DNA of 64,000 nucleotides from the NCBI GenBank assembly GCA_028286905.1, contig JAQBQP010000002.1, positions 383,430 through 447,429 on the forward strand. The letters run 5' to 3'. Source of the stretch: Candidatus Doudnabacteria bacterium (GTDB taxonomy: Bacteria > Patescibacteriota > Doudnabacteria > UBA920 > VMFF01). Below, piece by piece: positions 32,945 to 63,953 of this stretch. A program made the position numbers and the translations under genes. The notes under the pieces are model-generated. The model was not told where the DNA came from. It made no database searches and saw only the letters and a program-made list of their open reading frames with translations. Numbering within the stretch: the first letter of the stretch is position 1; each line of letters opens with the position of its first letter.

Positions 32945-32986
32945 AAAAAACTCTCTGTTTTTGCTTATATTTGTTAAAATACTGCC

Positions 32987-48200: not shown

Positions 48201-49424
48201 CGCATTTGTTGTTGCTGGTAATGTAACGGTTGAGGTGGTAATTTCATCTGTTCCCGCTTCTGTTATAGATGTCAGTATAGAACGTGTACCGTTATCCCCT
48301 GTTGAGTACGCAAAGGTGTACTTACGAGTTATAGTACCATTTGTTTTTATGTCTATTTCGTAGATTCGATAATTCGTAGTTGTGAGAAAACCGCCTTGAT
48401 AAGATTTGGTTACATCACCCCTGGTTTGACGAAGGAAATCTATTTCAAAAATACCGGTCGTTACACCATTCCCCGTATAAATTATTGTATTTGGATAAAT
48501 TTGTCCACTGTCTTTGTAATATGTGTAGGTAATGTAGTTGCTGTTTGTGTCTCTTACTTCATCTAGCATCCACTTAACCACTTTAGAAGAATCCCCCGGA
48601 TTATCCTGTCTTGAACCAGACGCTGTACCAAATTTATAAATAGTTCCTTTTTTATCTGTCACTGTCCATGCAGTTCCATCAAAATTGTATTTAAGGAAAT
48701 CTCCATTTTCTACAGTAGACGCGTAAGTAGTTCCAGAAACAAAAGATAAATCTCCAGAAAGACTGGAGTTAAAATAATTATCAGTAAATAGAGTGCTTAC
48801 ACCTTTTTTATTTACTCTGGAAATATAAGGAACAGTGGTTGTCCATCCATACCCAACGGGACTATCACCAGAAACAGATTGGCTATTGTAAGCAAGTTTT
48901 AAATCCGGTTGCATTCCGTTTCGGCCAGGTGGAATTGTGATCGGATAACTTGAAACCAATGCTCCTGTTGTTTGATCAGGTTGTGGAATTATTTGCTTAG
49001 TTACGGTAGGCTGTGGCAATCCGGTTGCTACATCCTGTTGGATTAGTGCACTTGATTGTGGCGCAACTTTGACCTTTGAAGACTTAGCCGTTGCTGACAA
49101 AGGGTCAGAGCTCAAAGAATCAGTGGTAGGGTCAAGACCAGCAACATCAGGACCTGCTACTGTTGGATCAGTCACAGGCGCGGGAACGGCAGCATTAGGA
49201 GTGTTTACTACAGGATCGGTAAGGGGCGCAGTTGGAGTATCCACCACTACAGGGGAGCTAAGAGCATTACTAGGAGTATCTGATACGGGCGCAGAAATAA
49301 CAGTATTAGAAGTATCTGCGAAAACAGGAGCTAAAGGAGCTATAACAAATAAAAAAGCTAACAGAAAAACTGTTAACCGAGTTACTAGACGCCTCTTAAA
49401 TAGAGTTGCCATTATTTTGTTCAA
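42156..49424 (-). CDS. Giant RHS/YD-repeat polymorphic toxin-like secreted protein (RHS-2) with an embedded BNR/Asp-box beta-propeller
   Basis: 2422 aa with a signal peptide near-identical to RHS-1 (LLAFLFV..PLAPVFAD), FG-GAP-like repeats, YD repeats, six SxDxGxTW Asp-box repeats and a Thr-rich Ig-like segment. The RHS core ends at DPTGKF, followed by a roughly 190 aa C-terminal tip unrelated to that of RHS-1. Confidence 0.9.
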   Translation of the reverse strand: MNKIMATLFKRRLVTRLTVFLLAFLFVIAPLAPVFADTSNTVISAPVSDTPSNALSSPVVVDTPTAPLTDPVVNTPNAAVPAPVTDPTVAGPDVAGLDPTTDSLSSDPLSATAKSSKVKVAPQSSALIQQDVATGLPQPTVTKQIIPQPDQTTGALVSSYPITIPPGRNGMQPDLKLAYNSQSVSGDSPVGYGWTTTVPYISRVNKKGVSTLFTDNYFNSSLSGDLSFVSGTTYASTVENGDFLKYNFDGTAWTVTDKKGTIYKFGTASGSRQDNPGDSSKVVKWMLDEVRDTNSNYITYTYYKDSGQIYPNTIIYTGNGVTTGIFEIDFLRQTRGDVTKSYQGGFLTTTNYRIYEIDIKTNGTITRKYTFAYSTGDNGTRSILTSITEAGTDEITTSTVTLPATTNAYTSTTSSGWTQNSSWSFPSDTSFDGRSLFADINGDGLPDIITSFTASNGTDYRATYLNNSSGTWTASSAYNAPTPFKSFNAGSNIDFNVHAIDVNGDGLADLIYSNKDSSGTITAATYINNGSGWTVTTAWTSPINFTYLWSDFGTRIVDLNGDGLPDIFQSNTISGGSIAAHVYLNTGSGWTSDVGSSWTFPVISGDNATFLDLNGDGLEDIIRLAWTGTTFNTSAYLGDGKGTWTSSTDYTPALTTSYLSGYYPSDLGVRFADVNGDGLPDLIQSINWYGAIYRTTYLNTGNGWTSNTTSWNTPGTFSFTNGYGSSADILDLNGDGMADITDGYTSIYINNSAATDLLSSTTFPFGGSSTFTYKSSALSGYNGLNPKLPYVIQTVYQVTSNDGLGTTGTDTYSNSLGSFYFDSGDFTTRKFAGFGVITKTDPSGNVMTSYFHQGNGSDSTHGEYSDEYWKIGKMYRMTVANSSGSLFSKVINRWDSYNLTGGKKFVRVTRTVTSTYDGDSTHRDVARTYLYNNSTGNVSQKTELGEVTGSDDGSYVDIGTDDFTTAYTYATDGANVIGLPDDISVTDHSATKVKEDKYYYDTQSFGAVTKGNQTKHEMWKVSTTFVNTQKTYDGTYGIVTVDTDPRGKTTSYSYDTYHLYPTTVTNPLSQVTTNTYDYSSGQVLQTTDPNTRVFKNVYDGLDRLVEQDQPDLITPSTLVTKNTTIYTDTSGAVKTLISNYLDSSTTVDVYTYFDGLGRKLQERTEAEGSNFSVKDYVYDSRGNLYKESLPYFSIGTTKTSPTITTALYTVYSYDPMNRITTSVNAAGTTTNTYNDWKLTVNDANSKVKDFYKNAYGNLIQVDEHNSGSTYSTYYVYDFLGDLLKITDASGNVRNFTYDGLGRNLTAQDLHASADATYGTWAYVYDDAGNLTQKVDALSQTTNYTFDNINRVLTEDYTGATGTENTYVYDTGTDGKGHLYSSTTSAVTQTNTYNPLGGLKSEIKVIGGNSYETDYTYDRQGNQLIITNPDSSQVKYIYNSAGLLNQVQRKESTDSSYSDVVTNFDYSPTGQISETDYANGIITANTYDAAHLYRLSNKLTTPTSSAGTPPTTPAVNTISTSWSGVSGSPQVAKALVMDPTNSTIEYSGTWNGIYKSTDSGTTWTQITSTSSWLVNSIAVDPLNHNTVYAATDWDSSCWAHGSVYKSTDAGTTWSEINSGLTISSCQNYIDLVVDPATSGTVYVVNDTTGIYKTTNSGTSWSKVYDPSGVTNDLPYDLVIDPTTPSTLYASVNTGVIKTTNSGTSWSRVFTYTLNSTTKMTALVIDPTSTSTIYVASVDSWSNQNHLYKTTNSGSTWTKITDLNGFVAHDGMIISPQSHTTLYSVFNGARVQTSTDGGTNWSEMSTGLPGSSFGNSVYALLFDPNTATLFATNWWGTIYSWIIGNTSIAPVINTFQATPANISSGHSSTLTWTVSGGTPTTFSIDNGVGGMFGHGSTSVSPTTTTTYTLTASNSSGSTTRTATVNFNPKFQDVSYTYDNVGNITAIVDNSTTNTKKNVAYGYDDLYRLASMTTTSAVNSNNHSETYTYDAIGNLLTKSDITGTYAYSGNTGTLYANPHAVTAIGSVGLTYDRNGNVLTKGTSYTNTWDYNNRLTQTVAGSTTIAYAYDANGERAKYVNGSTVVAYPTKLYNTDGTNITKHIFANGMDVATISGTGTTAVARNTVTDNLTGSNIVLNAVGAQDELLDYYPFGTSRLDEKAGTFSEQRKFAGHEFDADTGLTYMDARYYDQATGRFQSEDPAFLEVGSPSLIKKDTDKDGLVFLTDPQALNSYSYARNNPLKYTDPTGKFFGIDDLITLIVIGLLQPKILQADPVYEPQQYAQTKKYQPQFIFMGDMISVDGIPIPEGNVSVEGGFYRGGGSFDLTGRAGADFTVDPKTGYVGRTQGPSVNIDPANANVVKYGGANQIISIPDQLEILQGSNGHGSIVPKKGVNLTPKQFQESLNKIQTKPYEGLKFTPSSDLKSK

Positions 49425-49492
49425 TTAAGATTTAATCTATTTTCAATATATTCTTTATTTGAATTGCTTGTCAAATCGATGTAAGTATGGCT

Positions 49493-50020
49493 TTATAAAG
49501 GATTGTCTTTATTATATTGCTCATATTCAGCTTCGCTCATATCATTCTCCAGATTAGAAAAGAATCGAGAATCTGTGAGCAGATCCATTAGCAAACTATT
49601 GTATTTATTTTGCAACCATTCTGGAAGTTTGTCGATTAAGGTACGCATATCATCTTCACTAAAATAACTCTTCTGATTTTCATTTTTAAGTATCTTTGGA
49701 TCAAAGCCTTCAATATAGGCCATCCAGAATCTCTGACTTTTTGCATTCCCTTTTATAGCGGCGTTGTACATCGCCTGAAGCATAGCTGGCAGCCTATCCC
49801 TACCCCACTGTTTTAAAATTGCATCAACCTGAGGCTTAAAGTCCGCCCGATTCTTCCAGTGTGTTAGAGTATTCTGGTTTATGTTATAATGCTCCGCAAA
49901 TTCGCCTTGATCGCTTAGGTGAAGCCTTGCTCTTTCAAAAGGAGGAAGCGCTGACCAGCGAATGAACTCCCGGTAAACATCCACTTTATAAACCCCCTTC
50001 TTTTCTACATTTGTCTGCAT
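49493..50020 (-). CDS. HTH DNA-binding protein, phage small-terminase-like
   Basis: The likely start is the Met at 50020 (MQTNVEKKG...) inside ORF 49493-50224. It has an HTH-like segment EFAEHYNINQNTLTHWKN and a ...AIKGNAKSQRFWMAYIEGF motif reminiscent of TerS. Palindromic operators lie upstream. Confidence 0.5.
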   Translation of the reverse strand: MQTNVEKKGVYKVDVYREFIRWSALPPFERARLHLSDQGEFAEHYNINQNTLTHWKNRADFKPQVDAILKQWGRDRLPAMLQAMYNAAIKGNAKSQRFWMAYIEGFDPKILKNENQKSYFSEDDMRTLIDKLPEWLQNKYNSLLMDLLTDSRFFSNLENDMSEAEYEQYNKDNPL

Positions 50021-50113
50021 TTTGATTTCTGCTGATTGAGTCGATAATGTCTTTATTATGGGCCAAATGAGCAAAAAAGTTAAATCTTTTAGATGCAACT
50101 TGCAATAGGGATT

Positions 50114-50128
50114 GTGATTGGCAATCAC
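50114..50128. promoter_or_regulatory. Perfect 15 bp palindrome GTGATTGGCAATCAC (candidate operator) with additional TTCAAT/ATTGAA half-sites nearby
   Basis: Located in the 5' region of the HTH gene. The annotated 243 aa ORF probably over-extends through this regulatory region. Confidence 0.5.
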
Positions 50129-50271
50129 TGTTGCTTTCGCTTTCAATCCGCTTTGAATCACTATTGAAAATCCGCATAGAAAGCGACCTATCCGGGTCAT
50201 TTCCCTATTTGGAAATATCCCCAAATACCCCTTATAATCCGTCTATATTCCTGGGACTGGACCGGCCCCTC

Positions 50272-50309
50272 CAGCCAGACCAAACACGTTCCCCGCTGAC
50301 CTAGCGGGG
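50272..50309 (+). repeat. att-like direct repeat, copy 2
   Basis: CAGCCAGACCAAACACGTTCCCCGCTGACCTAGCGGGG, followed directly by the ATCGCC hairpin module. Confidence 0.8.
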
Positions 50310-50319
50310 TTAAAAAAAT

Positions 50320-50352
50320 AAAATCGCCGAAGAGGCGATTTTTTGTTATGCT
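50320..50352 (+). promoter_or_regulatory. Terminator hairpin / extended -10 module (AAAATCGCCGAAGAGGCGATTTTTTGTTATGCT)
   Basis: Conserved module also at 28067, 53328, 61523, and weaker at 51703, 52414 and 63878. Confidence 0.55.
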
Positions 50353-50409
50353 AGATATGTATTAATGTCAACTTTAAAACCTGCAGATCAGCGGCTCTTC
50401 TGAAAATGA

Positions 50410-50943
50410 ATGAACAATATGGATGTGCTTCAAATCTTAAATACAATTTTTACCGGTTTTACTGTAATAGTGGCTATTATTGCAGTTATTTTGGCGTTTA
50501 AAATAGGGCAAAAACAAAATGAAATAAATAACCGGCTCTTATCCCTTCAAGATTACGTTGCGATATCTTTTATCCCTGATTCCCGCAACGGTGTTATAAA
50601 ATTACTCAACACTGGAAAATCAAATTTGTATTTGTGGGGGTTTGATTGGAGTTTTAATTCCGCTAATAACAACTATCACTATGAAAAAGCAAGGCTCATA
50701 AGCGCAGGCACAAACGACTCTTCGTACTATTGGATTCCTCTTCCAAAAAATATTGATAAAATTTCTACCACAACCAATTTTGATATCAAACTTTATTTAG
50801 AAGATGACTATGGAAATAAATGGGTTTCGGAGGGGGGAGGTGAGGCAAATCCAATAAAAATTATGAGCGATGAAAAAGAAGTTCCCGCCGCTGCAATTAC
50901 CATATGGTCTTATAAAACTTATAAAGATAAGTGGTCATTTTAA
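50410..50943 (+). CDS. Hypothetical membrane-anchored protein (cassette 1)
   Basis: 177 aa with one N-terminal transmembrane helix; AT-rich. Confidence 0.55.
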   Translation: MNNMDVLQILNTIFTGFTVIVAIIAVILAFKIGQKQNEINNRLLSLQDYVAISFIPDSRNGVIKLLNTGKSNLYLWGFDWSFNSANNNYHYEKARLISAGTNDSSYYWIPLPKNIDKISTTTNFDIKLYLEDDYGNKWVSEGGGEANPIKIMSDEKEVPAAAITIWSYKTYKDKWSF

Positions 50944-50980
50944 AACGGTATGGCGGACAAGCTGCCTCACTCTAATCAAA

Positions 50981-51012
50981 GTTCCAACTTCGTCCCATGT
51001 CCGCGGCCAATT
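50981..51012 (+). repeat. Cassette-junction motif copy M1 (GTTCCAACTTCGTCCCATGTCCGCGGCCAATTGA)
   Basis: One of nine same-orientation copies of a roughly 33 bp intergenic motif. Confidence 0.75.
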
Positions 51013-51093
51013 GACAAATACCATTAAATATGGTATTTTTTTATATTCAAGTTAAATTGGAGGATAACCCTTTCATCACAATGGAGTTTCGAC

Positions 51094-51588
51094 ATGCGTA
51101 TCTCTCGGAACAGTCTTGCCTACCGCATAGCCTTCGCCTTTGAGGACGAGAAACCCTCCCAGGTCGGGCTCTGCGAGCTTTGCTGGAGCGTCATTCTTAG
51201 CCCTATGGCACTCTTGTTCCACGGCGCGAAGATGGCGTGGCTGTACTTCTGGGGCCTTTTCATCGCTTGCAAACCAATCGGTACTGAAACGCGTTACGTC
51301 GGGCGATCATATGCGTCCCCCGATGGGTACGCCAAGATGACCCTCTGGGAGACCTACCCCCGGTGGCCGAAGATCCACGGAATCGTGACTCGTCCGGTGT
51401 ACCTGATCGGCGCGCTCGGCGGACTGGTCTTCCTCTACGTCACCTGGAAGATCCTCATCGGCATCGGCGCCTTCATGCTTCTGCTATTCTCGATTACCGC
51501 AGGAGTCGAAGGTTTGGAGAAACTCTACAACGGTCTCTACAACGCAGCCAACAGGAAAGGGCTGTGCCCGGTGGTGGAAGTGAAATGA
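51094..51588 (+). CDS. Hypothetical polytopic membrane protein in a GC-rich cassette
   Basis: 164 aa with about 4 transmembrane helices; local GC is about 58%, against about 38% in adjacent units. Confidence 0.5.
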   Translation: MRISRNSLAYRIAFAFEDEKPSQVGLCELCWSVILSPMALLFHGAKMAWLYFWGLFIACKPIGTETRYVGRSYASPDGYAKMTLWETYPRWPKIHGIVTRPVYLIGALGGLVFLYVTWKILIGIGAFMLLLFSITAGVEGLEKLYNGLYNAANRKGLCPVVEVK

Positions 51589-51611
51589 AGCAACGCTTCA
51601 ATGCGTGCAGA

Positions 51612-51645
51612 AAGCGCGGTGCCCCAAGGTGCCGCGCTTTTCTGA
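51612..51645 (+). terminator. Intrinsic terminator
   Basis: AAAGCGCGGTGCC-CCAA-GGTGCCGCGCTTTTCTG. Confidence 0.65.
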
Positions 51646-51664
51646 TAAATTTTTTACAATTGTC

Positions 51665-51698
51665 CTTCCAACTTCGTCCCATGTCCGCAGCCAATACT
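51665..51698 (+). repeat. Cassette-junction motif copy M2
   Basis: CTTCCAACTTCGTCCCATGTCCGCAGCCAATAC, followed by a weak hairpin and TGTTATACT. Confidence 0.75.
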
Positions 51699-51753
51699 TT
51701 TAATCGCCTAATAAGCGGTTTTTTGTTATACTTAGAACAATTAAATGACAATA

Positions 51754-52307
51754 TGAAAAAACTATTTTTATCAATCTTTGCCTTAGGATTAATCGGAGCG
51801 GGTTGCAACCAACAAACTGCTACGCCCACAACAAATAATCAACCTGAAAAAACCGTCTCCATCCCGGCTAGCAACACAACCACTTATGACGCTAAAGATT
51901 TTCAATTTCAAATATCTTACCCTAAAGACTGGACCGTTACACCCGCATCGGAAGCAGACCATGTAAAAGTAGGTTATCAATTTTCAAACTTCAAAAACAA
52001 CGAAACAGACTTTTACACGCTTGTAGTGACCAAAGAGCCAAACACTTTTACTCAACTTACCGGGTCTACAAAAGTTAAGTTACCTAACGGAATGGATGCA
52101 ACAGAGTATGACAATAAGTACGATAACCGGGTTACCGAACAAGTATTCCATATTCAACAAACTGGCTACTATTACACCCTAAGCTTTCAAGTACACCACG
52201 CTATTCCTAGCGATGGTACGGTAAATCCACCAGCTTTAAGCGCAGAAGACCTAACTGTTAGAGATTCACTTATCGCTTCATTTAAAATGACAGCTTCTTC
52301 AAGGTAA
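51754..52307 (+). CDS. Lipoprotein
   Basis: MKKLFLSIFALGLIGAGC signal peptide with a lipobox. The long 51363-52307 ORF in the track is a read-through artefact crossing the junction motif. Confidence 0.65.
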
Positions 52308-52321
52308 CCTCGTTAACTTCT

Positions 52322-52355
52322 GTTCCAACTTCGTCCCACAATTGCAGCAATGACC
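52322..52355 (+). repeat. Cassette-junction motif copy M3 (variant 3' half)
   Basis: GTTCCAACTTCGTCCCACAATTGCAGCAATGACC. Confidence 0.7.
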
Positions 52356-52454
52356 TTCATCTGGGATGTTTGTGCGGGAGCGTCAGCGAAGGCAAAAATA
52401 CTTTTTCGAAACTAAAAAATCGTCTCCATGACGATTTTTTGATATACTCAGCTC

Positions 52455-53267
52455 ATGTCAGAAATTCCACATCTTGATAGAGCCATTGGCCTTCCTTCTT
52501 CTGAAAGTCATGCCCAGGAAGAGTACGAATCCCATATTAGAGAAATTTATGAAACCAGGGGCGTAAATCCTTATGAAAATTTTGAATTGCCTAAAACAGA
52601 ACGCGACAAAGAGATCATTGATTTTGTTCAACAATCTTTGGATCAGTATCTTGCTATTTATAATCGTGAAAAAATAGTGAGCGTACCTGTTTCTAAAATT
52701 CATATTTTTTCAGAGAATGGAGTCAAGGACTTCACGAATGGTAATGTAGAAAAAGGATCTGCAGCTATAAAATTTGGGAGTATGCTAGTAGAGAGGCCTG
52801 CTTCAGATATACAGTTTGCGCTTAACGTTTTTCATGAGATGGTTCATTTAAAGTCGTACTCAGCGGTTCAAATAGTCAACCAACCAGAGGGACTGGAAAT
52901 AATTAACTATCGTTCAGGTTTTTCAGTTACAAGTCGCGAGGGTAAAAATTTATATTTTCAAGATTTAGAAGAAGGAGTGATTGGATTTCTCGTAAGAAGA
53001 TTTTACCAAGAACATGTTCAAAATAATACGATATTCTCCGAAAAGAGAGCCATGTACAACTATTCCAGAGATGAGGAGTATGGGAAATTGGAAGCTCTGA
53101 TCCAGGATCTTTGGGAAAAGAATCAAGATAAATTCGAAAATATAAAATCAATTTGGGATATTTTTATTAATACACAGTTGAATGGGAATTTATTACCAAT
53201 TGGTCGCTTAATTGAATCTACCTATGGTAAAGGATCATTTCGCAAACTAGGTGAAAATAATTTATAA
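52455..53267 (+). CDS. Hypothetical protein with HExxH motif (putative zinc metallopeptidase)
   Basis: 270 aa with the VFHEMVHLKSY motif. It is preceded by the AAAAAATCGTCTCCATGACGATTTTTTGATATACT module; the -10 ends about 7 nt before the ATG, so the mRNA may be leaderless. Confidence 0.5.
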   Translation: MSEIPHLDRAIGLPSSESHAQEEYESHIREIYETRGVNPYENFELPKTERDKEIIDFVQQSLDQYLAIYNREKIVSVPVSKIHIFSENGVKDFTNGNVEKGSAAIKFGSMLVERPASDIQFALNVFHEMVHLKSYSAVQIVNQPEGLEIINYRSGFSVTSREGKNLYFQDLEEGVIGFLVRRFYQEHVQNNTIFSEKRAMYNYSRDEEYGKLEALIQDLWEKNQDKFENIKSIWDIFINTQLNGNLLPIGRLIESTYGKGSFRKLGENNL

Positions 53268-53291
53268 TTATTTATTAATTGATCTATTTCA

Positions 53292-53327
53292 GTTTCCGAC
53301 TTCGTCCCCCAATCGCAGCCAGAAATT
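53292..53327 (+). repeat. Cassette-junction motif copy M4
   Basis: GTTTCCGACTTCGTCCCCCAATCGCAGCCAGAAATT, followed by the ATCGCC hairpin and TGTTAAACT (53328-53358). Confidence 0.75.
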
Positions 53328-53384
53328 AAATCGCCGAGCAGGCGATTTTTTGTTAAACTTAATATGTAATTAAGCAGAGCATTT

Positions 53385-53870
53385 ATGAAAAACATCAAAA
53401 CCAATCCCGCACTAAAGGATCTTGAATTACTTATTGGACATTGGACAACAGAGCTATCGAACGCTTCGTTTCTCAATGACCGATCAGCTGTCCTACAAGG
53501 CAATGCCTCTTTCGAATGGTTTGGGGACGGAGATTTTCTGGTTTTATACCAAGGGACAAAAAATGTCGATGCGGCGTGGGCGACATGGATTATCGGCCGA
53601 GATCAAGACACATCGGACTACACTATTCTTTATTTTGACGATCGACGTTTTTCTCGTGTCTACGAAATGAGCTTTAAAAAAGGCGTTTGGAAAATATGGC
53701 GTAATTCTCCAAAATTTATACAAAGCTTTAAGGGCGTAATAAGTAAGGATAAAAAAACAATCACGGGGCGCTGGAGAAAATCATCTGACGGAAAGCGTTG
53801 GGAACACGATTTTGATTTAGTCTATAAAAGAGTTAGCACAAAAAAGAAATTAACGTCAAAAAAGAGATAG
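53385..53870 (+). CDS. Hypothetical protein
   Basis: 161 aa soluble protein with a Lys-rich C-terminal tail. Confidence 0.55.
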   Translation: MKNIKTNPALKDLELLIGHWTTELSNASFLNDRSAVLQGNASFEWFGDGDFLVLYQGTKNVDAAWATWIIGRDQDTSDYTILYFDDRRFSRVYEMSFKKGVWKIWRNSPKFIQSFKGVISKDKKTITGRWRKSSDGKRWEHDFDLVYKRVSTKKKLTSKKR

Positions 53871-53911
53871 TCTTTTTTACCTCCATGTGCTTTATTAGAT
53901 CCGAGCTAACC

Positions 53912-53945
53912 GTTCCAACTTCGTCCCATCTCCGCAGCCAATACC
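53912..53945 (+). repeat. Cassette-junction motif copy M5
   Basis: GTTCCAACTTCGTCCCATCTCCGCAGCCAATACC. Confidence 0.75.
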
Positions 53946-54067
53946 GCTAGATCTAAGCCAAGCCGCTTGATTGTCGTAAAGATAGGTCTGTGCTAAAATT
54001 CTCGCAGTATTAGAAGGAGGAGTTCAAGCAGACAATATCCCCTCCTTAGCCCTTAACTAAGACCACA

Positions 54068-55156
54068 ATGCCTGAGAGATTTTTCGGAGATTTTCACGAT
54101 CAAAAGAACCCCATCAATCCAGAGAAAGTTGAGACTCACCATCGAATGGTTGTAGAATCCGCTCTAGAAGGACCTGAGGGCGAACATGCTCAATTGAGTA
54201 TCGCCTTAGATCAAGATGGCGTAGCCCGTAGGGTCAACTTCTGGGATCTGGATAAGACCTTGCTCCGAGCTGAACCGATACACGCTGTGGCTGTTACGGA
54301 GATCTTCCCGCACGTTCAGGATGTTGATGAACTGCGAAAGATCTACTTTGCAGGTTTCAAACTCGGCAATTCATTTCGAGAATGGGACCGGATGCACCGT
54401 ATTTACACTGAGGGTCAAAACCGCTTCAAGGACCCACAAGTGTACTTCGACGAAGTGATCGCAGCGGACAGCGAACGCCGCAAGGTAGACGAAGAAGGAA
54501 ACCCAACGCACGAGCGAGCTAACGACACGCTTCAGCGTTATGGCAAGATCGCCTATCAGCTCATGGCTGATCGACGGACTCAGGAAACCGAGGAAGGAAC
54601 ACCAAGCTTTTTCGAGAGCAACGGATTCCAACTGGAAGCCGCAGTACATCTGCTCCGCGCAAAATCGCGTATGGGCGAGGTTCATGTTTTTATGACCGCG
54701 AACCAGCAAGATTTCGCTCGGGCGTTAGTAGCGTTCTCTGGCTTATACAAGCATGGAATGTTCTTGGCCACAGATGAAACAATGGTTGGAGGCGGTAAAG
54801 ATATCGCGATCTTGAAGCTCATCGCGCAAATCGAGGCTCAAGGGATAAAGGTTCCTCGACACGACAAGCGTAGACTCGTAGTCTACGGCGACTCAGCTAC
54901 TGGAGATATCGGTAGCAGCAGCAAGATTACCGCTGCACATCCTGAGTTTCAATTCTCGGGCGGGCTGGTCACCGATGATCTTGCAGGAGTAGAAGACTGG
55001 AAACGCAAGATCAAGGAAGAAGAAGGTCTTCCCGAAGCCAAGCAACAGTTGACCGGAATATTTCGCACTGTCGACACCATCACACTTCCCAACGAAGACA
55101 TCGCTCGAAGCGAACGCGGAGTGCACAAGCTCGGTAAGAAACGTTCCCAGGTTTAG
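54068..55156 (+). CDS. HAD-superfamily hydrolase-like protein (GC-rich cassette)
   Basis: 362 aa with HAD motif I FWDLDKTLL and motif IV VYGDSATGD. The segment 54.0-58.6 kb has about 55% GC. Confidence 0.5.
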   Translation: MPERFFGDFHDQKNPINPEKVETHHRMVVESALEGPEGEHAQLSIALDQDGVARRVNFWDLDKTLLRAEPIHAVAVTEIFPHVQDVDELRKIYFAGFKLGNSFREWDRMHRIYTEGQNRFKDPQVYFDEVIAADSERRKVDEEGNPTHERANDTLQRYGKIAYQLMADRRTQETEEGTPSFFESNGFQLEAAVHLLRAKSRMGEVHVFMTANQQDFARALVAFSGLYKHGMFLATDETMVGGGKDIAILKLIAQIEAQGIKVPRHDKRRLVVYGDSATGDIGSSSKITAAHPEFQFSGGLVTDDLAGVEDWKRKIKEEEGLPEAKQQLTGIFRTVDTITLPNEDIARSERGVHKLGKKRSQV

Positions 55157-55241
55157 GTATTGAACTGTATAAGAACAACTTTACAACCGGCGGTCTCCAT
55201 TAGGAAACTGCCGGTTGTTGTTTTTCATGTTCTCTAATAAT

Positions 55242-55275
55242 AGTTCCAACTTCGCCCATGTCCGCAGCCAATACC
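55242..55275 (+). repeat. Cassette-junction motif copy M6 (inside the GC-rich segment)
   Basis: GTTCCAACTTCGCCCATGTCCGCAGCCAATACCA. Confidence 0.75.
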
Positions 55276-55339
55276 AGAACTCAAATGTCGCCGAAGCACG
55301 CAGCAATGACCATAATTGGATTCACAAAAAATATGTTAA

Positions 55340-55527
55340 GATTTTGAAGATGAAATAACTTTAGGCCAGCTTGGTGCTTTACCCTATCCTGAATTGCATC
55401 AATTTACAAAAGAATATTCTAAACGTGTCAGCGAAGAAGCTCATATCTGGCTACGTGAAAAGGGAATGAAAATACAGATCTTTACAGTCAAATATCCTAC
55501 TGCTATACTCAGGCATAACTTGAATGA
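55340..55527 (+). pseudogene. Possible gene remnant (ORF fragment lacking a start codon)
   Basis: A 62-codon open frame ...LGQLGALPYPELHQFTKEYSKRVSEEAHIWLREKGMKIQIFTVKYPTAILRHNLNEDE* that begins right after a stop, with no ATG/GTG/TTG near its start; AT-rich DNA embedded in the GC-rich segment. Confidence 0.2.
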
Positions 55528-55563
55528 GGACGAATAAAAACCACCTTCTCAGAGAGGCGTAAA

Positions 55564-57558
55564 ATGAAGAAACGCTCTCCGAACGGTGGAGCGCTTAGTA
55601 TTAGAGAGGTGTTGGCCACCCAGACGGAGTTGGAACTGATAAATCGTTTCCTAGGCGGCGAAGAACGCGCCTTTCAGGAACTTGTTGAGCGTTATCAGAC
55701 TAGACTTCTGAACTTCATCTATCGCACAATCGGCGACAGAGAGAAGGCGGAAGACCTTGTCCAAGAAACGTTCATACGAATTTACCGCCATCTGCATCGC
55801 TTTGACCGCGACAAGAAGTTTTCGACTTGGGCCTACACGATCGCATCGAACCTGGCGAAGAACGAACTCCGAAATCGTTCGCGGAATCCGCTCGTCCTAT
55901 TTCAGACAATCCAAGGAAATTGGGAAGATGAGGATCGGCCTCTGCAATTCGAAGATACCCAAGCACGCCCAGACGACATGTTCAACAAACGTCATCTTCG
56001 CGAGTTGGTTGACGATGCAGTAGCCTTACTCCCCGTGCATCACCGCTCTGTGTTCATAATGCGAGAGTTGGAGGGCAAGAGCTATGAAGAGATTGCCGAC
56101 GAAACCGACACAAACCTTGGGACAGTGAAGTCCAGGTTGAACCGGGCTAGGAACGCTTTCGCAGAACTGATCGAAGATCATATCGAGCAAGAGGAATTTT
56201 CACAGTCCAAACCCCTCCCTCCCAACGGAGCGCTGACAATGCCCATAGAAACGGCTATCAGACCTACTCAGCCCTCCGCAAACGGAACGGCTCCGGATGG
56301 TCTTAGGGACACACTGCGAGGTGTGTTCATGTGGTGGCTGGATTTGGAGAACGCGCATATCGTTTTTCAGATTCTGAAACCGCCGAAGAAGTTCGACGAT
56401 TTCGCAAACATTTTTTCGCAAATCCGCGCCGAAATTTGGCAAAGAAATGCGAAAAGAGCTTTGCCGCCAACGTCCCTGATGACGAAGGCGCTGCCCGTGA
56501 TAAAGCAGATTGCGGAGCGAGCCAAGCAGATGCGACTCCCGAATGTTCCCGCCGTACCCGGAAGCGAGCCTGAAACACTCCAACCCCCCGACAACGATAT
56601 GAGCGGTAAATATTCCGGAAGCAACAACCGTCGGCGCGTCGAGAGTGAGTCAGCCGTCGTCAAGCGGCCCCAGACCAAGGACGAACTGGAACACGAAAAA
56701 GCGCGGATCCGCGCTAAGCTCGTCGAATACCTGGGCAGACCGGCGAACTGGGAAGTTCTTCAGAGCACCACCTACTCGCATTTCTGCAAATCAGCCGGAA
56801 TGAGTCTGGCGCGCAATGAATTCAACATCATGTTCTCCGAAGTCAACGCCGAGCTCAAGCAGCTAAGAAGAACGGTGCGCGCGGCATCGACGAACGGTTC
56901 TGCGCCGCACGTTGAGCCCGCTAGTTCTGTCGTTGGCATAATCGCGCCGGCGACACCAGCTGTACCAATCGCGCTCGTAACACCACCATCGCCGGCAAAC
57001 ACTTCAGCCAACACGACAATGCCAGCAAAGATCGTCTGGCTAGCTGAGAATGGTAAGCATGGTCAGATGTACGCCGCCGACAGAATTCAGTTGGAATCCA
57101 TGCTCAGCAAGTTGCTAGTCGCCGAGCCTACGATCACCGTGCAAAAGGCCTACTCTCACCTGAAACCTCCGGTGAGTGAGGTTACTTTCAAGAAGCACTT
57201 CGCGGCTGCACAGTCACGTCTTGCCCCTTCGGCGGATGCCGAAGAAGTTGTAGCAACGGAAGCGCTTCCGGTCTTCGAACCCGAAGCAGCGGCCGAGACA
57301 ACAAAGGCAGAAGTGCCGACAATTGCCGAAGTCACTTCGGCCACGACGATCGAAGCCGCAGAGCCAGCAACGACGGTCGAAGATGCGCCAGCAAAGCAGG
57401 CTCGCAAGAGCATTCGGCTTCGTAGCGATGAAGTGTTCTTCCGAGCCGTACCGAACGATGATGGTACTTGGGCAGTAGAACAGCACTACCGGAGCCTGGA
57501 CGCCCTGACCATGCTAAAGATGTTGGAGCTGGCCGCCCAGCTTATGACCCAGGCGTAA
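55564..57558 (+). CDS. ECF-type sigma-70 family factor with a roughly 460 aa Ala/Pro/Thr-rich C-terminal extension
   Basis: N-terminal sigma region 2 (LVERYQTRLLNFIYRTIGDREKAEDLVQETFIRIY) and region 4 (RELEGKSYEEIADETDTNLGTVKSRLNRAR); about 58% GC. Confidence 0.8.
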   Translation: MKKRSPNGGALSIREVLATQTELELINRFLGGEERAFQELVERYQTRLLNFIYRTIGDREKAEDLVQETFIRIYRHLHRFDRDKKFSTWAYTIASNLAKNELRNRSRNPLVLFQTIQGNWEDEDRPLQFEDTQARPDDMFNKRHLRELVDDAVALLPVHHRSVFIMRELEGKSYEEIADETDTNLGTVKSRLNRARNAFAELIEDHIEQEEFSQSKPLPPNGALTMPIETAIRPTQPSANGTAPDGLRDTLRGVFMWWLDLENAHIVFQILKPPKKFDDFANIFSQIRAEIWQRNAKRALPPTSLMTKALPVIKQIAERAKQMRLPNVPAVPGSEPETLQPPDNDMSGKYSGSNNRRRVESESAVVKRPQTKDELEHEKARIRAKLVEYLGRPANWEVLQSTTYSHFCKSAGMSLARNEFNIMFSEVNAELKQLRRTVRAASTNGSAPHVEPASSVVGIIAPATPAVPIALVTPPSPANTSANTTMPAKIVWLAENGKHGQMYAADRIQLESMLSKLLVAEPTITVQKAYSHLKPPVSEVTFKKHFAAAQSRLAPSADAEEVVATEALPVFEPEAAAETTKAEVPTIAEVTSATTIEAAEPATTVEDAPAKQARKSIRLRSDEVFFRAVPNDDGTWAVEQHYRSLDALTMLKMLELAAQLMTQA

Positions 57559-57596
57559 ACAAACAACCCAAAGGAGAAACAGGAGAAAAACGAAAA

Positions 57597-57633
57597 CTCC
57601 GGCACCGATCTAATCGATGTCGGAGTTTTTTTC
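57597..57633 (+). terminator. Intrinsic terminator after the sigma-factor gene
   Basis: CTCCGGCACCGATCTAATCGATGTCGGAG followed by TTTTTTTC. Confidence 0.65.
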
Positions 57634-57708
57634 TTAATAACGCTTTGGCGTGCATGGACTCAACTGCACTAAAGAAGCTTAAAAAAATATTCAGTAAAAA
57701 AACAAAGC

Positions 57709-57749
57709 ACCGCGGTATACTTCGACAATTTGTCGAAGTATACCGCGGT
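57709..57749. terminator. Perfect 41 bp palindrome (20 bp arms) between convergent genes
   Basis: ACCGCGGTATACTTCGACAA-T-TTGTCGAAGTATACCGCGGT, with a T-tract on the minus-strand side. Confidence 0.6.
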
Positions 57750-57754
57750 AGCGC

Positions 57755-58618
57755 TTAGCAGGACGCCCTGGCCCTTTGGTGGGATGAGCGTTTTCTTCTT
57801 TCCTCCGTTCTTTTGATTTCCCCTTTCGTCGCCGGACGCGGGAAGCTTGGCACTTCCTGCTGGAACGACCAGATCGTTTCCGCGAATCCGGTCAGATTGT
57901 ACACTCGCGAGGCGACCGAGCGAGCCTGCCCTTTGAATGCACCAACAACGGCATGAACCATACCGGCCGTCAGCTCTTCACAGGACGCCTTCATAAGCGA
58001 CCCACTGAAGCTCTGCTGAACGACATAGCGAACTTCACGTTCGTTCAGAAAGTCACGCCCTGGGACATACAGAACGTCCAGATCGCCTTCGAACGAACCG
58101 TCATAGCCGCCGCAGATCGCATCGTCAACGAGCTGAGCGTTGACGGAAAGCCGCTTCAGCGAAATGACACGCGAGCCCTGCTTCGGCCTGAACTGCGCTG
58201 GCAGCGTACCCCACTGACCAACAGCACGACCCTGATCGTGAGGCGTGCGAACTTCCGCGTGCACGCCGACCAGCCGATCGCCAATCTCCCCCCTGGAGAG
58301 GCGGACGATGGACTTGGCCAGCCGATCATTGGTATCGTCAGGCCTTACCATCTGAACGAAGCTGATGAAGCTCCGGTTGTCGACAACGAAGCCAGAGGAG
58401 TCTGGCCAGGCCGTCAGAGAGACGTTGACCATGTACTGGTCGTCCTCGACGTCTGAACCAATACGCCCCCTCGTATCTCGAGAGACTGGAAAGTCCTTCA
58501 AGTACAAGGTCACCGGCGCAGAACCTTTTGGTTGCACTGCAACCTCCAGTTGAAAGTGATCGCCTAAGCTTTGGCGATATAGAAGAGTAGCATATAACTG
58601 CCCTTTTTTCAAGTTCAA
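57755..58618 (-). CDS. Hypothetical protein (GC-rich cassette)
   Basis: 287 aa ORF at about 58% GC, convergent with the sigma-factor gene. Many overlapping ORFs in this region are GC-driven artefacts. Confidence 0.5.
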   Translation of the reverse strand: MNLKKGQLYATLLYRQSLGDHFQLEVAVQPKGSAPVTLYLKDFPVSRDTRGRIGSDVEDDQYMVNVSLTAWPDSSGFVVDNRSFISFVQMVRPDDTNDRLAKSIVRLSRGEIGDRLVGVHAEVRTPHDQGRAVGQWGTLPAQFRPKQGSRVISLKRLSVNAQLVDDAICGGYDGSFEGDLDVLYVPGRDFLNEREVRYVVQQSFSGSLMKASCEELTAGMVHAVVGAFKGQARSVASRVYNLTGFAETIWSFQQEVPSFPRPATKGEIKRTEERRKRSSHQRARASC

Positions 58619-58635
58619 GTGTGTTGGTAAAAACA

Positions 58636-58660
58636 GTTCGATTTTTTGTTATACTTTATA
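58636..58660 (+). promoter_or_regulatory. Right half of the hairpin/extended -10 module (CAGTTCGATTTTTTGTTATACTTTATAT) followed by an orphan ATG and junction motif M7
   Basis: Module order is inverted relative to the other junctions: module, then ATG, then motif. Confidence 0.4.
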
Positions 58661-58680
58661 TATGAAACCGACACTAAACT

Positions 58681-58707
58681 TGTTCCAACTTCGCCCATGT
58701 CCGCAGC
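58681..58707 (+). repeat. Cassette-junction motif copy M7 (3'-truncated)
   Basis: GTTCCAACTTCGCCCATGTCCGCAGCA, after which similarity ends. Confidence 0.7.
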
Positions 58708-58777
58708 ATAAAAAAAGTACACCGCTATCATGATGTACTTTTTATTTCACTTACTTTTTGTAAAAGTTAATCAATAC

Positions 58778-59545
58778 CTAACCTAATTTTGTAATAGCTG
58801 TTTCCATTTCATCTAACATATATTGTCCCTCTGTCGGGTATTCTGCCAACGCTTTTTGAAATAGCGGAAAGTAGATTTCTCTTGTTTCAGCAACAATTCT
58901 TCGCTGCTTTTCAGGGGTTGTTCCAGCCAAACTTCTTAAATTGTGCAGCCTGTCAGCCATTTTAGCTAATATAGTTTTTGCAGGAGCGTTGCTCAAGTTT
59001 TCAATATAAAAATGATGGGCTTCTGCTTTAGTCTTTAATTCTTGTCCATCAACTTTTGGCTTTGTCAAAGTGATAACTATGTCAGCAACCTGTGAATTGA
59101 AAACCTTCCTCAAGCGAAACTCAGCAACCTCTTTCCATTTAGAGTAAGCTTGGGTTGCATTTCCAAACATAGCTGAATCTTCAACTGAATCATGTAAAAG
59201 ACATGCGATAATTAAATCTGGATCTTTAATTTTGCACTCATCAATTAAAATTAAGGCTACCGCTCTTAAGTGTTCAAAGTAACGCTCACCGGTATCACGC
59301 TCATGCGGGCGATGAGCTTCTTTACCCAAATCGTAAGCAAAATCAATTGTATTGATGACTTCTATTGGCAAGCCTTCTAATCTTTTGAGAAAGCTAGCTC
59401 GATTTTCCAATTCTACTTTTTCGTATTCTGCTTCAACCGGATTACTAATGCGCGCGGCCTCCTCATCTTCTATAAAAGGATGGTTTATTTCCTTGCCCTC
59501 CCCCGCTGATTGAGCCGCGAGTCTTGCCTCAATATTTTGATCCAT
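58778..59545 (-). CDS. HD-domain (p)ppGpp hydrolase-like protein (RelA/SpoT hydrolase-domain-only, small alarmone hydrolase type)
   Basis: 255 aa with HD motifs RYFEHLRAVALIL, LLHDSVEDS and MADRLHNLRSL as in the SpoT hydrolase domain; no synthetase domain. Confidence 0.7.
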   Translation of the reverse strand: MDQNIEARLAAQSAGEGKEINHPFIEDEEAARISNPVEAEYEKVELENRASFLKRLEGLPIEVINTIDFAYDLGKEAHRPHERDTGERYFEHLRAVALILIDECKIKDPDLIIACLLHDSVEDSAMFGNATQAYSKWKEVAEFRLRKVFNSQVADIVITLTKPKVDGQELKTKAEAHHFYIENLSNAPAKTILAKMADRLHNLRSLAGTTPEKQRRIVAETREIYFPLFQKALAEYPTEGQYMLDEMETAITKLG

Positions 59546-59667
59546 ACTTGTAAGTTAATTTATACAATTATTATAGCTTTTTTTGAATCTACGTGCTAAC
59601 CTTCGCCTTTATAACCTCAAGCAGTATTTTAATCGCCTCTAAGGCTATTTTTTGATATAGTTTAGAC

Positions 59668-60138
59668 ATGAATGAAAATAGAGAAAATCAGCGAGAAATA
59701 GGGACCAATCCTTTCTGGGTTCGGCCAAACCCAGAAAAGGAGCAAGGAGAAATTCAAAGGGCTGTTCAAGAATTTCTGAAAGTACAGCCCAGTGGAGAGG
59801 TACTCCAACAAGTTATCGATCAGATTAATATATCTCCAATTGTTGATCTTGCCGATGATACCTGGAGCCTTTTGGAAAACACAGACTCTTACGACATCAG
59901 ACCAGGATTTCTAGAAGATGCTGAAAACCTAACTGAAGAATATAATTCCCAATTATCTGTAGAAAATAAGCGTAACTTTAAAGCATTGGTTCAAGGCTTT
60001 AAAAGAAACCAACCGATGGAAGTCCCTATAATCATAAAAAGTAATGATCGACTTCATTTACTGAGCGGTAATACTCGCCTTATGATTTCGAGAGCGTTAT
60101 CCATTAAACCGAAGGTTATTATTGCAGAGCTTCCATAA
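59668..60138 (+). CDS. Hypothetical protein
   Basis: 156 aa acidic soluble protein. Confidence 0.5.
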   Translation: MNENRENQREIGTNPFWVRPNPEKEQGEIQRAVQEFLKVQPSGEVLQQVIDQINISPIVDLADDTWSLLENTDSYDIRPGFLEDAENLTEEYNSQLSVENKRNFKALVQGFKRNQPMEVPIIIKSNDRLHLLSGNTRLMISRALSIKPKVIIAELP

Positions 60139-60230
60139 TTTCCGCTCTAGCGCAGTTTTCTGTTTCATCTATATGATTTGGATATGAATGAAAGCCCTCT
60201 CATGAGGTTCCTTGCGTTAAATTTATAAGC

Positions 60231-60686
60231 TTATGAGTACGTACTGATAAGTAATAAAAAGAATATTAGTCCATTCAATGTAATCAAGGCTGTCCTAATC
60301 CAATGAGTTTCTCTCAATCGTTTCATTAATGGACTGGTTGAACTTTGATGCTCAGCACTTATTTTTCTCTCCCAGCGTCCCCACATACTCCCTGTAAGCA
60401 CAAGGATCATATATTGAATTAATACAGCGAGCAAAAGTAATGGGAAGAGAATTTTTGCAGGATGCACCCAAAGCAGTATGGTACTACAAAGTACCAATAT
60501 TCCCGTTGGAATAAATACCAAATACGGTAGTACCCTCCAATGAACGCCCCGGACCTTATGGAATAACTCAGTATCGTCAACCACCATCCATGAGCGCAAT
60601 GTTATTAACTCCATGGACCAGATCAGGCCAATCCCGTAAAACGAGAGCGCTCCGCAAAGCAAAAATAAGATATTAGGGAAATGCAT
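60231..60686 (-). CDS. Hypothetical membrane protein (4 transmembrane helices)
   Basis: 151 aa hydrophobic ORF. Confidence 0.5.
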   Translation of the reverse strand: MHFPNILFLLCGALSFYGIGLIWSMELITLRSWMVVDDTELFHKVRGVHWRVLPYLVFIPTGILVLCSTILLWVHPAKILFPLLLLAVLIQYMILVLTGSMWGRWERKISAEHQSSTSPLMKRLRETHWIRTALITLNGLIFFLLLISTYS

Positions 60687-60715
60687 AATATTTTTTTATT
60701 ATTTCTTTAGATTTC

Positions 60716-61180
60716 TTATACTACTAGCGCAACAAGAAGCGAAAAACCTCCGACCAGTAATACCACTTCGCGTATCCAGGAGAAGATGAGCCACAATCTT
60801 GTACCCGTAATGATTTCTGTGGACGAAGGAACGAATGTTCCGGCCTTACCCCATTCAATAATCTTTGGAGCCAGGTATGCTCCGCTTAAAATTGCTGTAA
60901 CTATATAGCAGATTCCGGCAAGAAGAATGAGCATACGTCGCTCAGGATTGTTCCAATTGAGCACTAACGCCGTCACCATTACAAGAACTGTCGCAACTTG
61001 CAGGGCAATCCAGAAGTTTTTTTCCATCGTACCATTTTGATTTATCTTCCCAAACGACACAGGAGGATTCGCAAACCACGTGGGCATGACAACAATGCTT
61101 TGGTACATTCCTATACCGACAACCGTTACCAAAAGAAAGCTAGCAATAATTAGAACCAAACTTGCAGGTGTAAAATTCAT
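60716..61180 (-). CDS. Hypothetical membrane protein (DUF1772-like, 4 transmembrane helices)
   Basis: 154 aa; adjacent to and co-oriented with the 60231-60686 gene. Confidence 0.5.
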   Translation of the reverse strand: MNFTPASLVLIIASFLLVTVVGIGMYQSIVVMPTWFANPPVSFGKINQNGTMEKNFWIALQVATVLVMVTALVLNWNNPERRMLILLAGICYIVTAILSGAYLAPKIIEWGKAGTFVPSSTEIITGTRLWLIFSWIREVVLLVGGFSLLVALVV

Positions 61181-61488
61181 ATTCGTGTCATATTAAGATT
61201 AAAATTTGACACTTGTCGAGAGAAAAGCAAAAGAGCAGACTCTCTATCAAGCATCTTTCAAACACAAAAATATCTCTAGAGTATATCCAGTGTTTGAAAG
61301 AACTGCGATTCGGAGTTTTGCTCCTAGATAGAGAATCTACTCTTAAAACGTAAGTGAGTATATTCTTTTCAGAAATTTCCTAAAAGGGAATTTCCTAGAT
61401 CAGTTCTTATTTATATAATACGCTGATAATGGTAAAAACTCAAGTAACCACAATACTGTGGCTACTTATAGTACTCGTCAAATAAAAA

Positions 61489-61522
61489 GTTCTAACATTG
61501 TCCTATGTTTGCAGCCATACTC
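61489..61522 (+). repeat. Cassette-junction motif copy M8 (degenerate)
   Basis: GTTCTAACATTGTCCTATGTTTGCAGCCATACTC, followed by hairpin TACTCGCCCCTTAGGCGGTTTTTT and TGTTATGCT (61523-61553). Confidence 0.6.
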
Positions 61523-61560
61523 TACTCGCCCCTTAGGCGGTTTTTTGTTATGCTTTAAAT

Positions 61561-62127: not shown

Positions 62128-62160
62128 CGTTCCCGCTTCGTCCGATGTGGCCAGTCTAAA
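62128..62160 (+). repeat. Cassette-junction motif copy M9 (degenerate)
   Basis: CGTTCCCGCTTCGTCCGATGTGGCCAGTCTAAA. Confidence 0.55.
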
Positions 62161-62237
62161 AACGAAAGAATACCGAACCCAAACAAATTTGAAATCTTTG
62201 TCAAAGTACTTCAACAGGAAATTAACGGCCTTAACTT

Positions 62238-62834: not shown

Positions 62835-62913
62835 ACATGAATTCCAGGAACCCTGCTTGGCTTTGGAGTTGGAACCTACACGTAGGAAGAATTTTATCTG
62901 TAATAACAAAACG

Positions 62914-63877: not shown

Positions 63878-63905
63878 CCGATCGCCTCTCAGGCAATTTT
63901 TTGTT
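63878..63905 (+). promoter_or_regulatory. Weak copy of the hairpin/extended -10 module (CCGATCGCCTCTCAGGCAATTTTTTGTTATAGT)
   Basis: Same organisation as the other junction modules. Confidence 0.4.
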
Positions 63906-63953
63906 ATAGTTTAAGTACACACAACATATATAATTAGAGGTAAAGAAAACACC

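Follow-up and report, generated by a model that had tools for sequence, protein, structure and literature searches.

GC-rich gene cassettes, probably imported, in a tRNA-Gln-anchored array of a Candidatus Doudnabacteria genome, one of them encoding an ECF sigma factor with a long C-terminal tail

A gene cassette array was analysed in a stretch of 64 000 nt (hereafter the window) located on a 540-kb contig (JAQBQP010000002.1) of a metagenome-assembled genome (MAG) of Candidatus Doudnabacteria. The array lies downstream of a tRNA-Gln gene and its units are bounded by a 28-nt direct repeat named D1. Three stretches of the array are GC-rich. These stretches are probably imported cassettes of a D1 array anchored at tRNA-Gln, and the extracytoplasmic function (ECF) sigma factor encoded by one of them carries a tail that is plausibly of regulatory type. 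Horizontal import through the cassette system is well supported. The genes have an atypical GC content at third codon positions (GC3), relatives of the sigma core were found on contigs with 66–69% GC and a homologue of a neighbouring 287-aa protein on a contig with 54% GC, as is characteristic of horizontally acquired genes.

The initial annotation had described units of 55–58% GC in a low-GC genome, and the sliding-window GC content and the GC and GC3 values of each gene agreed with the presence of such units. The GC content was 0.398 for the whole window and 0.388 ± 0.034 on average for the background genes. In 200-nt windows it reached 0.555–0.61 between 51100 and 51650 and 0.50–0.635 between 53950 and 58600, with drops in the intergenic stretches 55200–55500 and 57500–57750. 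The range first given was slightly too high for the HAD-like gene (51%) and for the second block as a whole (about 52%); the other GC-rich genes have 54–57% (Table 1). The GC3 of the four genes was at z = 2.9–6.5 when compared with the background (0.346 ± 0.062). Since the excess is found at synonymous sites, the Ala/Pro-rich composition of the proteins does not explain the GC-richness. The gene content was as annotated: a membrane protein, a HAD-like protein, an ECF sigma factor with an extension of about 460 aa and a convergent open reading frame (ORF). The locus tags are JWO40_683-685.

D1 has the structure GTTCCAACTTCGTCCC-N7-CAGC and is read in the window as (G)TTCCAACTTCG(T)CCCATGTCCGCAGCCAATAC. 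GC content steps up or down at D1 copies, and the edges of the GC-rich units coincide with this junction repeat, which bears out their description as foreign cassettes. The junction motif reported inside the GC-rich block was recovered as the D1 copy at 55243. This copy and that at 58682, which surround the sigma cassette, agree at all 26 of 26 nt and have a unique 1-nt deletion in common. In the native low-GC cassettes, the stop codon precedes D1, after which come a hairpin and its T6 run, an extended −10 element (TGTTATACT) and, about 10 nt later, an ATG. The GC-rich cassettes are devoid of this native hairpin/T6/extended −10 module; they bring their own Shine-Dalgarno (SD) sequences and GC-rich terminators, and they have AT-rich leaders carrying matches to sigma-70-like promoters. 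The perfect palindrome between the sigma gene and the convergent ORF is, from its sequence, likely to be a bidirectional terminator.

Several other features of these junctions were observed. The host module that precedes native cassette genes has the form ATCGCC-N5-GGCGAT for its hairpin, followed by T6, the extended −10 TGTTATACT and the ATG; its copies (Table 1) suggest insulated, possibly leaderless, transcription units. At 58639–58707, a 23-codon ORF lies downstream of a host promoter module and reads through the shortened D1; the segment resembles what recombination would have left of the beginning of a native cassette. The opposite strand carries, within the reverse-complemented D1 copy at 58682, TTGGAAC as a possible −35 element for the 287-aa gene.

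Table 1 Features of the tRNA-Gln region and of the D1 cassette array, with positions in the window
Feature	Position	Strand	Remarks
tRNA-Gln (UUG)	27914–27988	+	Anchor of cassette region; ARAGORN, Rfam
Direct repeat, left copy, 41–42 nt	27983–28024	+	Last 6 nt of tRNA-Gln (CAGCCA) and 35 nt downstream
22.3-kb island	27989–50275		Between tRNA-Gln and array; direct repeat at both ends; Pfam, PADLOC, Rfam
Large serine recombinase	31560–33023	−	Inside 22.3-kb island
Direct repeat, right copy	50276–50316	+	Head of cassette array
D1	50981–51012	+	5′ edge of GC-rich cassette 1; 25.8 bits
GC-rich cassette 1	51014–51697	+	AT-rich leader with SD GGAGGA, ORF 51094–51588, own GC-rich terminator, D1
164-aa ORF	51094–51588	+	GC 0.572, GC3 0.745
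D1	51665–51697	+	Closes GC-rich cassette 1
D1	52322–52354	+	After native low-GC cassette
D1	53293–53325	+	After native low-GC cassette
D1	53912–53944	+	5′ edge of second GC-rich block; GC rises directly 3′ of it
GC-rich cassette 2	53945–55274	+	HAD-like ORF 54068–55156, terminator 55183–55225, D1 variant
HAD-like ORF	54068–55156	+	GC 0.508, GC3 0.523
D1 variant minus one T	55243–55274	+	Ends GC-rich cassette 2
GC-rich cassette 3	55275–58707		290-nt low-GC leader, sigma gene, convergent 287-aa ORF
Promoter-like TTTACA-17-TGcTATACT	55481–55509	+	Upstream of sigma gene; 10/12 consensus matches and TG extension; consensus match only
ECF sigma factor, 664 aa	55564–57558	+	GC 0.543, GC3 0.602; Pfam, TIGR02937, Foldseek, AF2
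Sigma2	55681–55884 (aa 40–107)	+	PF04542, E 1.8e-21
Sigma4	56002–56154 (aa 147–197)	+	PF08281, E 7.8e-15
C-terminal extension, ~460 aa	56176–57555	+	
Perfect 20 + 20 nt palindrome	57709–57749		Between sigma gene and convergent ORF
287-aa ORF	57755–58618	−	GC 0.562, GC3 0.635
D1 variant cut off after GCAGC	58682–58707	+	3′ edge of GC-rich block
Degenerate D1	61489–61521	+	8.5 bits
Degenerate D1	62129–62161	+	5 bits
Host module copies	50323–50361, 51703–51741, 52419–52457, 53330–53368, 58639–58664, 59632–59670, 61525–61563, 63881–63919		

Arrays of D1 were then found to be widespread. A scan of species-representative genomes detected D1 in Lloydbacteria, Moraniibacteriota and other Patescibacteria MAGs, with extra copies nearby at gene-sized spacing, and a scan of metagenomes gave at least 120 D1 loci; the pooled D1 counts that follow refer to the matches listed. 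These comprise 230 copies in 131 loci, 50 of which are multi-copy, and the copies lie on one strand within each multi-copy locus listed (40 of the 50). The pooled consensus is GTTCCAACTTCGTCCCA.AC.GCCAGC, and the flanks outside it are not conserved. The 89 distinct units delimited by D1 have a median length of 662 bp (interquartile range 472–1069); 81% of the unit length is taken up by the longest ORF, which has the same orientation as D1 in 75% of cases. The stop codon of the upstream ORF is located 0–9 nt before D1 in about 35% of the copies. The GC content of the cassettes spans a range of 0.10 or more in nine of 25 arrays, for instance 0.34–0.57 in array L073 and 0.28–0.57 in array L039. 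Since many D1 arrays have a mosaic GC content, the mosaicism of the window is a general property of such arrays. Relatives (53–60% identical) of an OmdA/YdeI-like cassette gene (window 62746–63219) were found in the D1 arrays L063, L078 and L109, and also in L002, so that some cassette families are shared across D1 arrays.

The anchoring of these arrays was deduced from the tRNA genes that they contain. In 125 D1 loci, 39 of 43 tRNA genes are tRNA-Gln, and in all 39 loci concerned the tRNA-Gln is co-oriented with, and upstream of, every D1 copy, usually one cassette away. D1 itself resembles the T-arm/acceptor part (3′ half) of tRNA-Gln and shares its CAGC(CA) end. Loci L027 and L125 are 99.9% identical through ...CAGC and unrelated beyond; in L068, L079 and L126, homology stops at the GTTCCAAC edge of D1. 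A 554-bp cassette (98.7% identical) is placed after D1 in L005 and directly after the tRNA-Gln 3′ end in L083, and identity begins at CAGCCA. Given these breaks and this cassette, D1 behaves like a junction of site-specific recombination, for which the 3′ end of tRNA-Gln is the primary target. In addition, dnaX, often accompanied by a GtrA-like gene, recurs directly upstream of the tRNA-Gln/D1 array (L008, L015 and other D1 loci), which suggests a conserved chromosomal neighbourhood of the array.

These observations also bear on another way of reading D1, as a conserved 3′-untranslated or processing RNA element that travels with genes, the mosaic being produced by ordinary homologous or illegitimate recombination. 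The short distance between upstream stop codons and D1 would suit such an element, as would the position of D1 before the terminator in native cassettes, its tRNA-like character and the lack of a dedicated recombinase among the ORFs flanking D1 loci (n = 116). An Rfam search of D1 and the arrays returned only tRNAs and one LOOT RNA, with no RNA family and no conserved pairing at D1. Moreover, near-identical contigs part exactly at either D1 edge, the cassette shared by L005 and L083 is preceded by D1 in the first and by the tRNA-Gln 3′ end in the second, with identity starting from CAGCCA, and the strict anchoring at tRNA-Gln is typical of integration sites. An RNA element is thus considered unlikely, although it is the alternative that survives best.

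The sigma factor (protein record MDB4940259) is a genuine ECF sigma factor, as annotated. Of the sigma-70 domains it contains only sigma2 and sigma4 (Pfam), sigma1.1 and sigma3 being absent, as in group 4 sigma factors, and it scores 113 bits with TIGR02937 (cut-off 42.9). Foldseek searches with its model retrieved sigmaE, AlgU and SigW at E ~1e-8, and the core was confidently modelled by AlphaFold2 (AF2). All NCBIfam equivalogs remained far under their cut-offs (e.g. RpoE, 133 vs 236). The core shares 79–85% identity with stand-alone ECFs, about 200 aa long, encoded on 66–69% GC contigs (L003 and L014). Downstream of these stand-alone genes, the sequence MDCREF...HLACARCC is like the N-terminus of a ZAS-type (zinc-binding) anti-sigma factor; the zf-HC2 match downstream of the high-GC relative P0009 is weak (E 0.0015, below cut-off). 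No recognisable anti-sigma gene adjoins the sigma gene of the window, in agreement with the annotation: its neighbours, the HAD-like gene and the 287-aa ORF, match neither zf-HC2, RskA nor other anti-sigma families.

It had been proposed that the C-terminal extension acts as an intramolecular anti-sigma or sensor domain. The domain search of the 460 aa did not substantiate this identity, with no Pfam hit at E ≤ 0.05, no anti-sigma domain and no sensor fold. A fused ZAS anti-sigma was discarded, as the tail does not resemble the ZAS-like region found in the high-GC relatives and has no Pfam hit. The tail contains no conserved transmembrane segment, has no viral relatives, and is devoid of the signature domains of the ECF41, ECF42, ECF56 and ECF238 types (SnoaL-like, TPR, Cys-rich). 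It recurs only in P0001 (98%), P0002 (41% along the entire length; contig of 45% GC) and P0003, and in a shorter form in P0005. The sigma homologues of L002 (10001–14231) and L139 (1582–3006) form GC-rich islands in hosts of 45% and 44% GC, respectively. AF2 predicts helical modules at aa 245–322, 372–443 and 504–553, which appear weakly FF-like, and a putative beta3-alpha domain at aa 617–661; the linkers between modules are predicted to be disordered and Ala/Pro/Thr-rich. By analogy, the tail is plausibly a cytoplasmic protein-interaction or regulatory appendage. An intramolecular regulatory role is a reasonable and plausible proposal, based on the missing adjacent anti-sigma gene and on the conservation of the tail (pN/pS, the ratio of non-synonymous to synonymous polymorphism, 0.28). 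The protein is a further ECF with a C-terminal extension: it resembles those already described in its sigma2–sigma4 core, in the lack of an adjacent anti-sigma gene and in a long fused C-terminal region kept in a small group of homologues.

The other cassette proteins are less informative. The 164-aa protein, with about three transmembrane-like segments, has no family match in Pfam, NCBIfam or PHROG and only two marginal matches in 1.84e9 representatives, and is an ORFan. The 362-aa HAD-like protein possesses motif I (DxDxT) and motif IV (GDxxxD) of the HAD superfamily, as DLDKT and GDSATGD in the translation. It matches PF12710 under the cut-off (E = 0.003, 18.3 bits for a cut-off of 27) and has 44 homologues, many with PF00702 and one named Candidatus Paceibacterota. 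Its nearest relative (76% aa identity, L015 10001–11086) has a GC of 0.49 and a GC3 of 0.48 on a contig of 0.36 GC, in a region of small genes with a D1 site and dnaX nearby. The 287-aa protein is a soluble ORFan and its gene is convergent with the sigma gene; its only relatives are P0039 (99%) and P0040 (36%), the latter on a 54% GC contig bearing a D1-like variant. It gave nothing in Pfam, NCBIfam, PHROG, PADLOC and the PDB, and the HAD-like protein likewise had no PDB sequence match. A conserved gene pair formed by the sigma gene and the 287-aa gene was ruled out, P0040 not being beside a sigma gene. Membership of the cassette proteins in a defence system was also rejected, as no PADLOC match was obtained.

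The same genes can be examined for a GC-richness that would be intrinsic to them, i.e. long-resident genes shaped by protein composition, mRNA selection or biased gene conversion. Such an origin is improbable, somewhat more so than an RNA element. The sigma homologues of L002 and L139 and the HAD homologue of L015 are GC-richer than their flanks, normalisation leaves k-mer signatures that do not stand out clearly as foreign, and purifying selection acts on the genes, as intrinsic GC-richness would have it. On the other hand, the excess is greatest at third codon positions, a more distant HAD homologue (44%) has a host-like GC (0.389) and GC3 (0.316), two of the four genes are ORFans, the boundaries fall on a recombination junction and mosaicism is general in D1 arrays.

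Independent assemblies were used to judge the integrity and the history of the region. A 33-kb Logan contig of SRR13312974 is 100% identical to positions 45564–61337 of the window (15.8 kb). The Joint Genome Institute (JGI) contig L013, from a sister strain, is 97% identical to 54050–57728 and has the same order of HAD-like gene, D1 and sigma gene. Comparison of the window with L013 gave a pN/pS of 0.22 for the HAD-like gene and of 0.29 for the sigma gene, indicating purifying selection. The synonymous divergence (pS) was 0.146 for the HAD-like gene, 0.051 for the sigma tail and 0 for the sigma core (about 145 synonymous sites); these unequal values imply separate cassette histories. The initial annotation had considered the acquisition to be recent and the donors distant. 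The first point seems overstated, since a sister strain that has diverged by 3% already has the block, under purifying selection. The second holds in part: the sigma core alone points to a lineage of 66–69% GC, whereas members of the HAD-like family occur on contigs of Patescibacteria type, and the nearest of them is itself GC-rich in a 36% GC genome.

A chimera of assembly or binning, in which the assembler would have joined GC-rich cassettes of another population at a shared D1, is very improbable in the light of these contigs. D1 is indeed common to co-occurring Patescibacteria lineages, and the junctions proper are covered by just the MAG and the Logan contig. The two assemblies are nevertheless 100% alike over 15.8 kb and the sister-strain contig retains the HAD–D1–sigma order. 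The D1 copies of the window are not uniform: exact repeats among those listed reach 26 nt at most (family D6), too short for false joins in an assembly with k ≥ 31, and the 32-nt copies are at most 97% identical to the reference. Furthermore, the GC-rich cassettes bear the D1 subtype of the window itself (CCCATGTCCGCAGCCAATAC) and have AT-rich leaders with host-like promoters. A prophage or phage remnant, with the sigma factor as a phage takeover factor, is the least credible explanation of all: the sigma core does match phrog_1740 (E 7e-36) and a helix-turn-helix (HTH) protein at 49493–50224 resembles a small terminase subunit, but phage sigma factors reach at most 37% identity and align with the core alone, no relative of the tail is viral, the GC-rich block is devoid of genes for phage structure or replication, and none of the other cassette proteins has a PHROG hit.

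Several observations weigh against import of the three stretches as cassettes. The composition-normalised Karlin delta* and tetranucleotide deviations of the cassettes fall in the upper 6–14% of background windows of the same size; as the normalised k-mer signature is only a marginal outlier, the anomaly is essentially one of GC and GC3. Genes of the sigma family have about 54–55% GC and a GC3 of about 0.61 in three hosts (the window, L002 and L139), and the HAD subclade behaves in a similar way, so that an intrinsic cause of the GC-richness keeps a small probability. The transitions from low-GC to GC-rich DNA are present in two assemblies only, which may share reads. No recombinase is encoded next to the array (49–64 kb), and none, tyrosine type included, recurs consistently among the 116 ORFs flanking D1 loci. 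D1 is without a hairpin partner. The tail models are of low confidence (predicted local distance difference test 57–64, predicted template modelling score about 0.25, and 0.26 for one of the AF2 models).

The scan for recombinases covered about 36 window ORFs, roughly two-thirds of the total, including all those outside 0.8–28 kb; the sole one identified is of the large serine type and is encoded 18 kb from the array. Its homologues are present in eight other D1 loci of about 125, and in L074 and L106 no more than a few hundred nt separate the gene from tRNA-Gln. No other type of recombinase was seen repeatedly near D1 arrays. In the window, the gene belongs to a 22.3-kb island which, having a 41-nt repeat on both sides, was inserted between tRNA-Gln and the array. 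The cargo of the island includes a C5 methylase, a restriction endonuclease-like ATPase, a LOOT RNA and an HTH protein, in addition to the recombinase, and two giant RHS/YD proteins of 2149 and 2422 aa. The LOOT RNA (RF03000, 75.7 bits; 31419–31532, minus strand) directly adjoins the 3′ side of this recombinase gene, and an ORF called at 30863–31513 (minus strand) has its start within the RNA.

D1 arrays were compared with known systems. With integrons and clusters of attC sites lacking integron-integrases (CALINs) they share tandem co-oriented units, mostly with one ORF and of about 0.5–1 kb, a site after each ORF, a content mostly of unknowns, a mosaic composition and a fixed anchor at one end. 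The sites differ: attC is structured and variable in sequence, whereas D1 is a conserved 28-nt sequence without hairpin. For 179 copies of D1, no excess of complementarity was found in either flank, and the D1–flank pairing energies (−15.2 and −15.8 kcal/mol) compare with −14.6 and −15.2 kcal/mol for shuffled flanks. An attC-like hairpin at D1 was ruled out on this basis, and the imperfect hairpins of attC (R″-L″/L′-R′) have no counterpart in D1. The anchor is the tRNA-Gln 3′ end instead of attI, and neither an IntI tyrosine recombinase nor attI is present beside the array (49–64 kb). Native D1 cassettes also have their own promoter and terminator, unlike integron cassettes. A literature search with the D1 string yielded unrelated primers only, and nothing relevant was retrieved on integrons/attC or tRNA-Gln gene cassettes in Patescibacteria/candidate phyla radiation.

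In the tycheposon-containing islands of Prochlorococcus, cargo accretes downstream of a tRNA, with direct repeats related to the tRNA 3′ end, and is hypervariable between strains. D1 arrays resemble them in having their cargo downstream of a tRNA gene and repeats related to a specific tRNA 3′ end. Unlike tycheposon islands, their units are gene-sized, mostly single small genes, and do not encode their own integrase; D1 is a diverged tRNA-like sequence kept across Patescibacteria and not an exact copy of the tRNA end. The rAID-1 arrays of Bacteroidales are recombinase-associated arrays of orphan immunity genes, with intergenic repeats including promoters, near polymorphic toxin loci. The window array is like them in its small genes of varied GC, its conserved intergenic repeats and its neighbours of polymorphic-toxin type (the two RHS giants). 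It differs from them in that no tyrosine recombinase is adjacent and the RHS genes lie in a separate 22-kb island, and no evidence of an immunity function was obtained, none having been looked for.

In the scheme favoured here, site-specific recombination, either at D1 or at the 3′ end of tRNA-Gln, would carry cassettes between lineages of differing GC. The three GC-rich cassettes would have come from higher-GC donors and would then have been fixed. Judging from their sequences, they may be expressed from the sigma-70-like promoters of their AT-rich leaders, and the sigma gene would encode a functional ECF core of sigmaE/SigW type, the 460-aa tail standing in place of the usual downstream anti-sigma factor. 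A broader proposal is made with reserve, at somewhat less than even chances: D1 would represent a previously undescribed integron-like system of gene capture of Patescibacteria, with insertion at the tRNA-Gln 3′ end, a remote recombinase, perhaps the large serine type, and a new ECF group whose tail of tandem FF-like modules replaces the anti-sigma; the sigma, HAD and membrane-protein cassettes of the window would then be one outcome of this exchange.

Outside the array, the left part of the window encodes ATP synthase, LepA (protein record MDB4940228), MurJ, FtsW, MurD and MraY. A patch of 53% GC adjoining tRNA-Thr (window 7750–8180) has overlapping ORFs on both strands and no Rfam match up to E ≤ 0.1, and could represent either a structured RNA missing from the annotation or a further small insert of foreign DNA.

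The GC observation alone is ordinary evidence of horizontal transfer, and its value resides in the mechanism that it exposes. A cassette array at tRNA-Gln, with a conserved 28-nt junction and at least 120 environmental loci, brings together genes that plainly differ in GC. An imported ECF sigma factor is kept under purifying selection in a tiny genome, with a tail instead of the anti-sigma partner that is seemingly beside its closest high-GC relatives, which points to a different control of an alternative sigma factor. Patescibacteria have tiny genomes and rely on other cells, so that the gain of accessory genes is a live question in this group, for which the D1 array provides a concrete and testable route.

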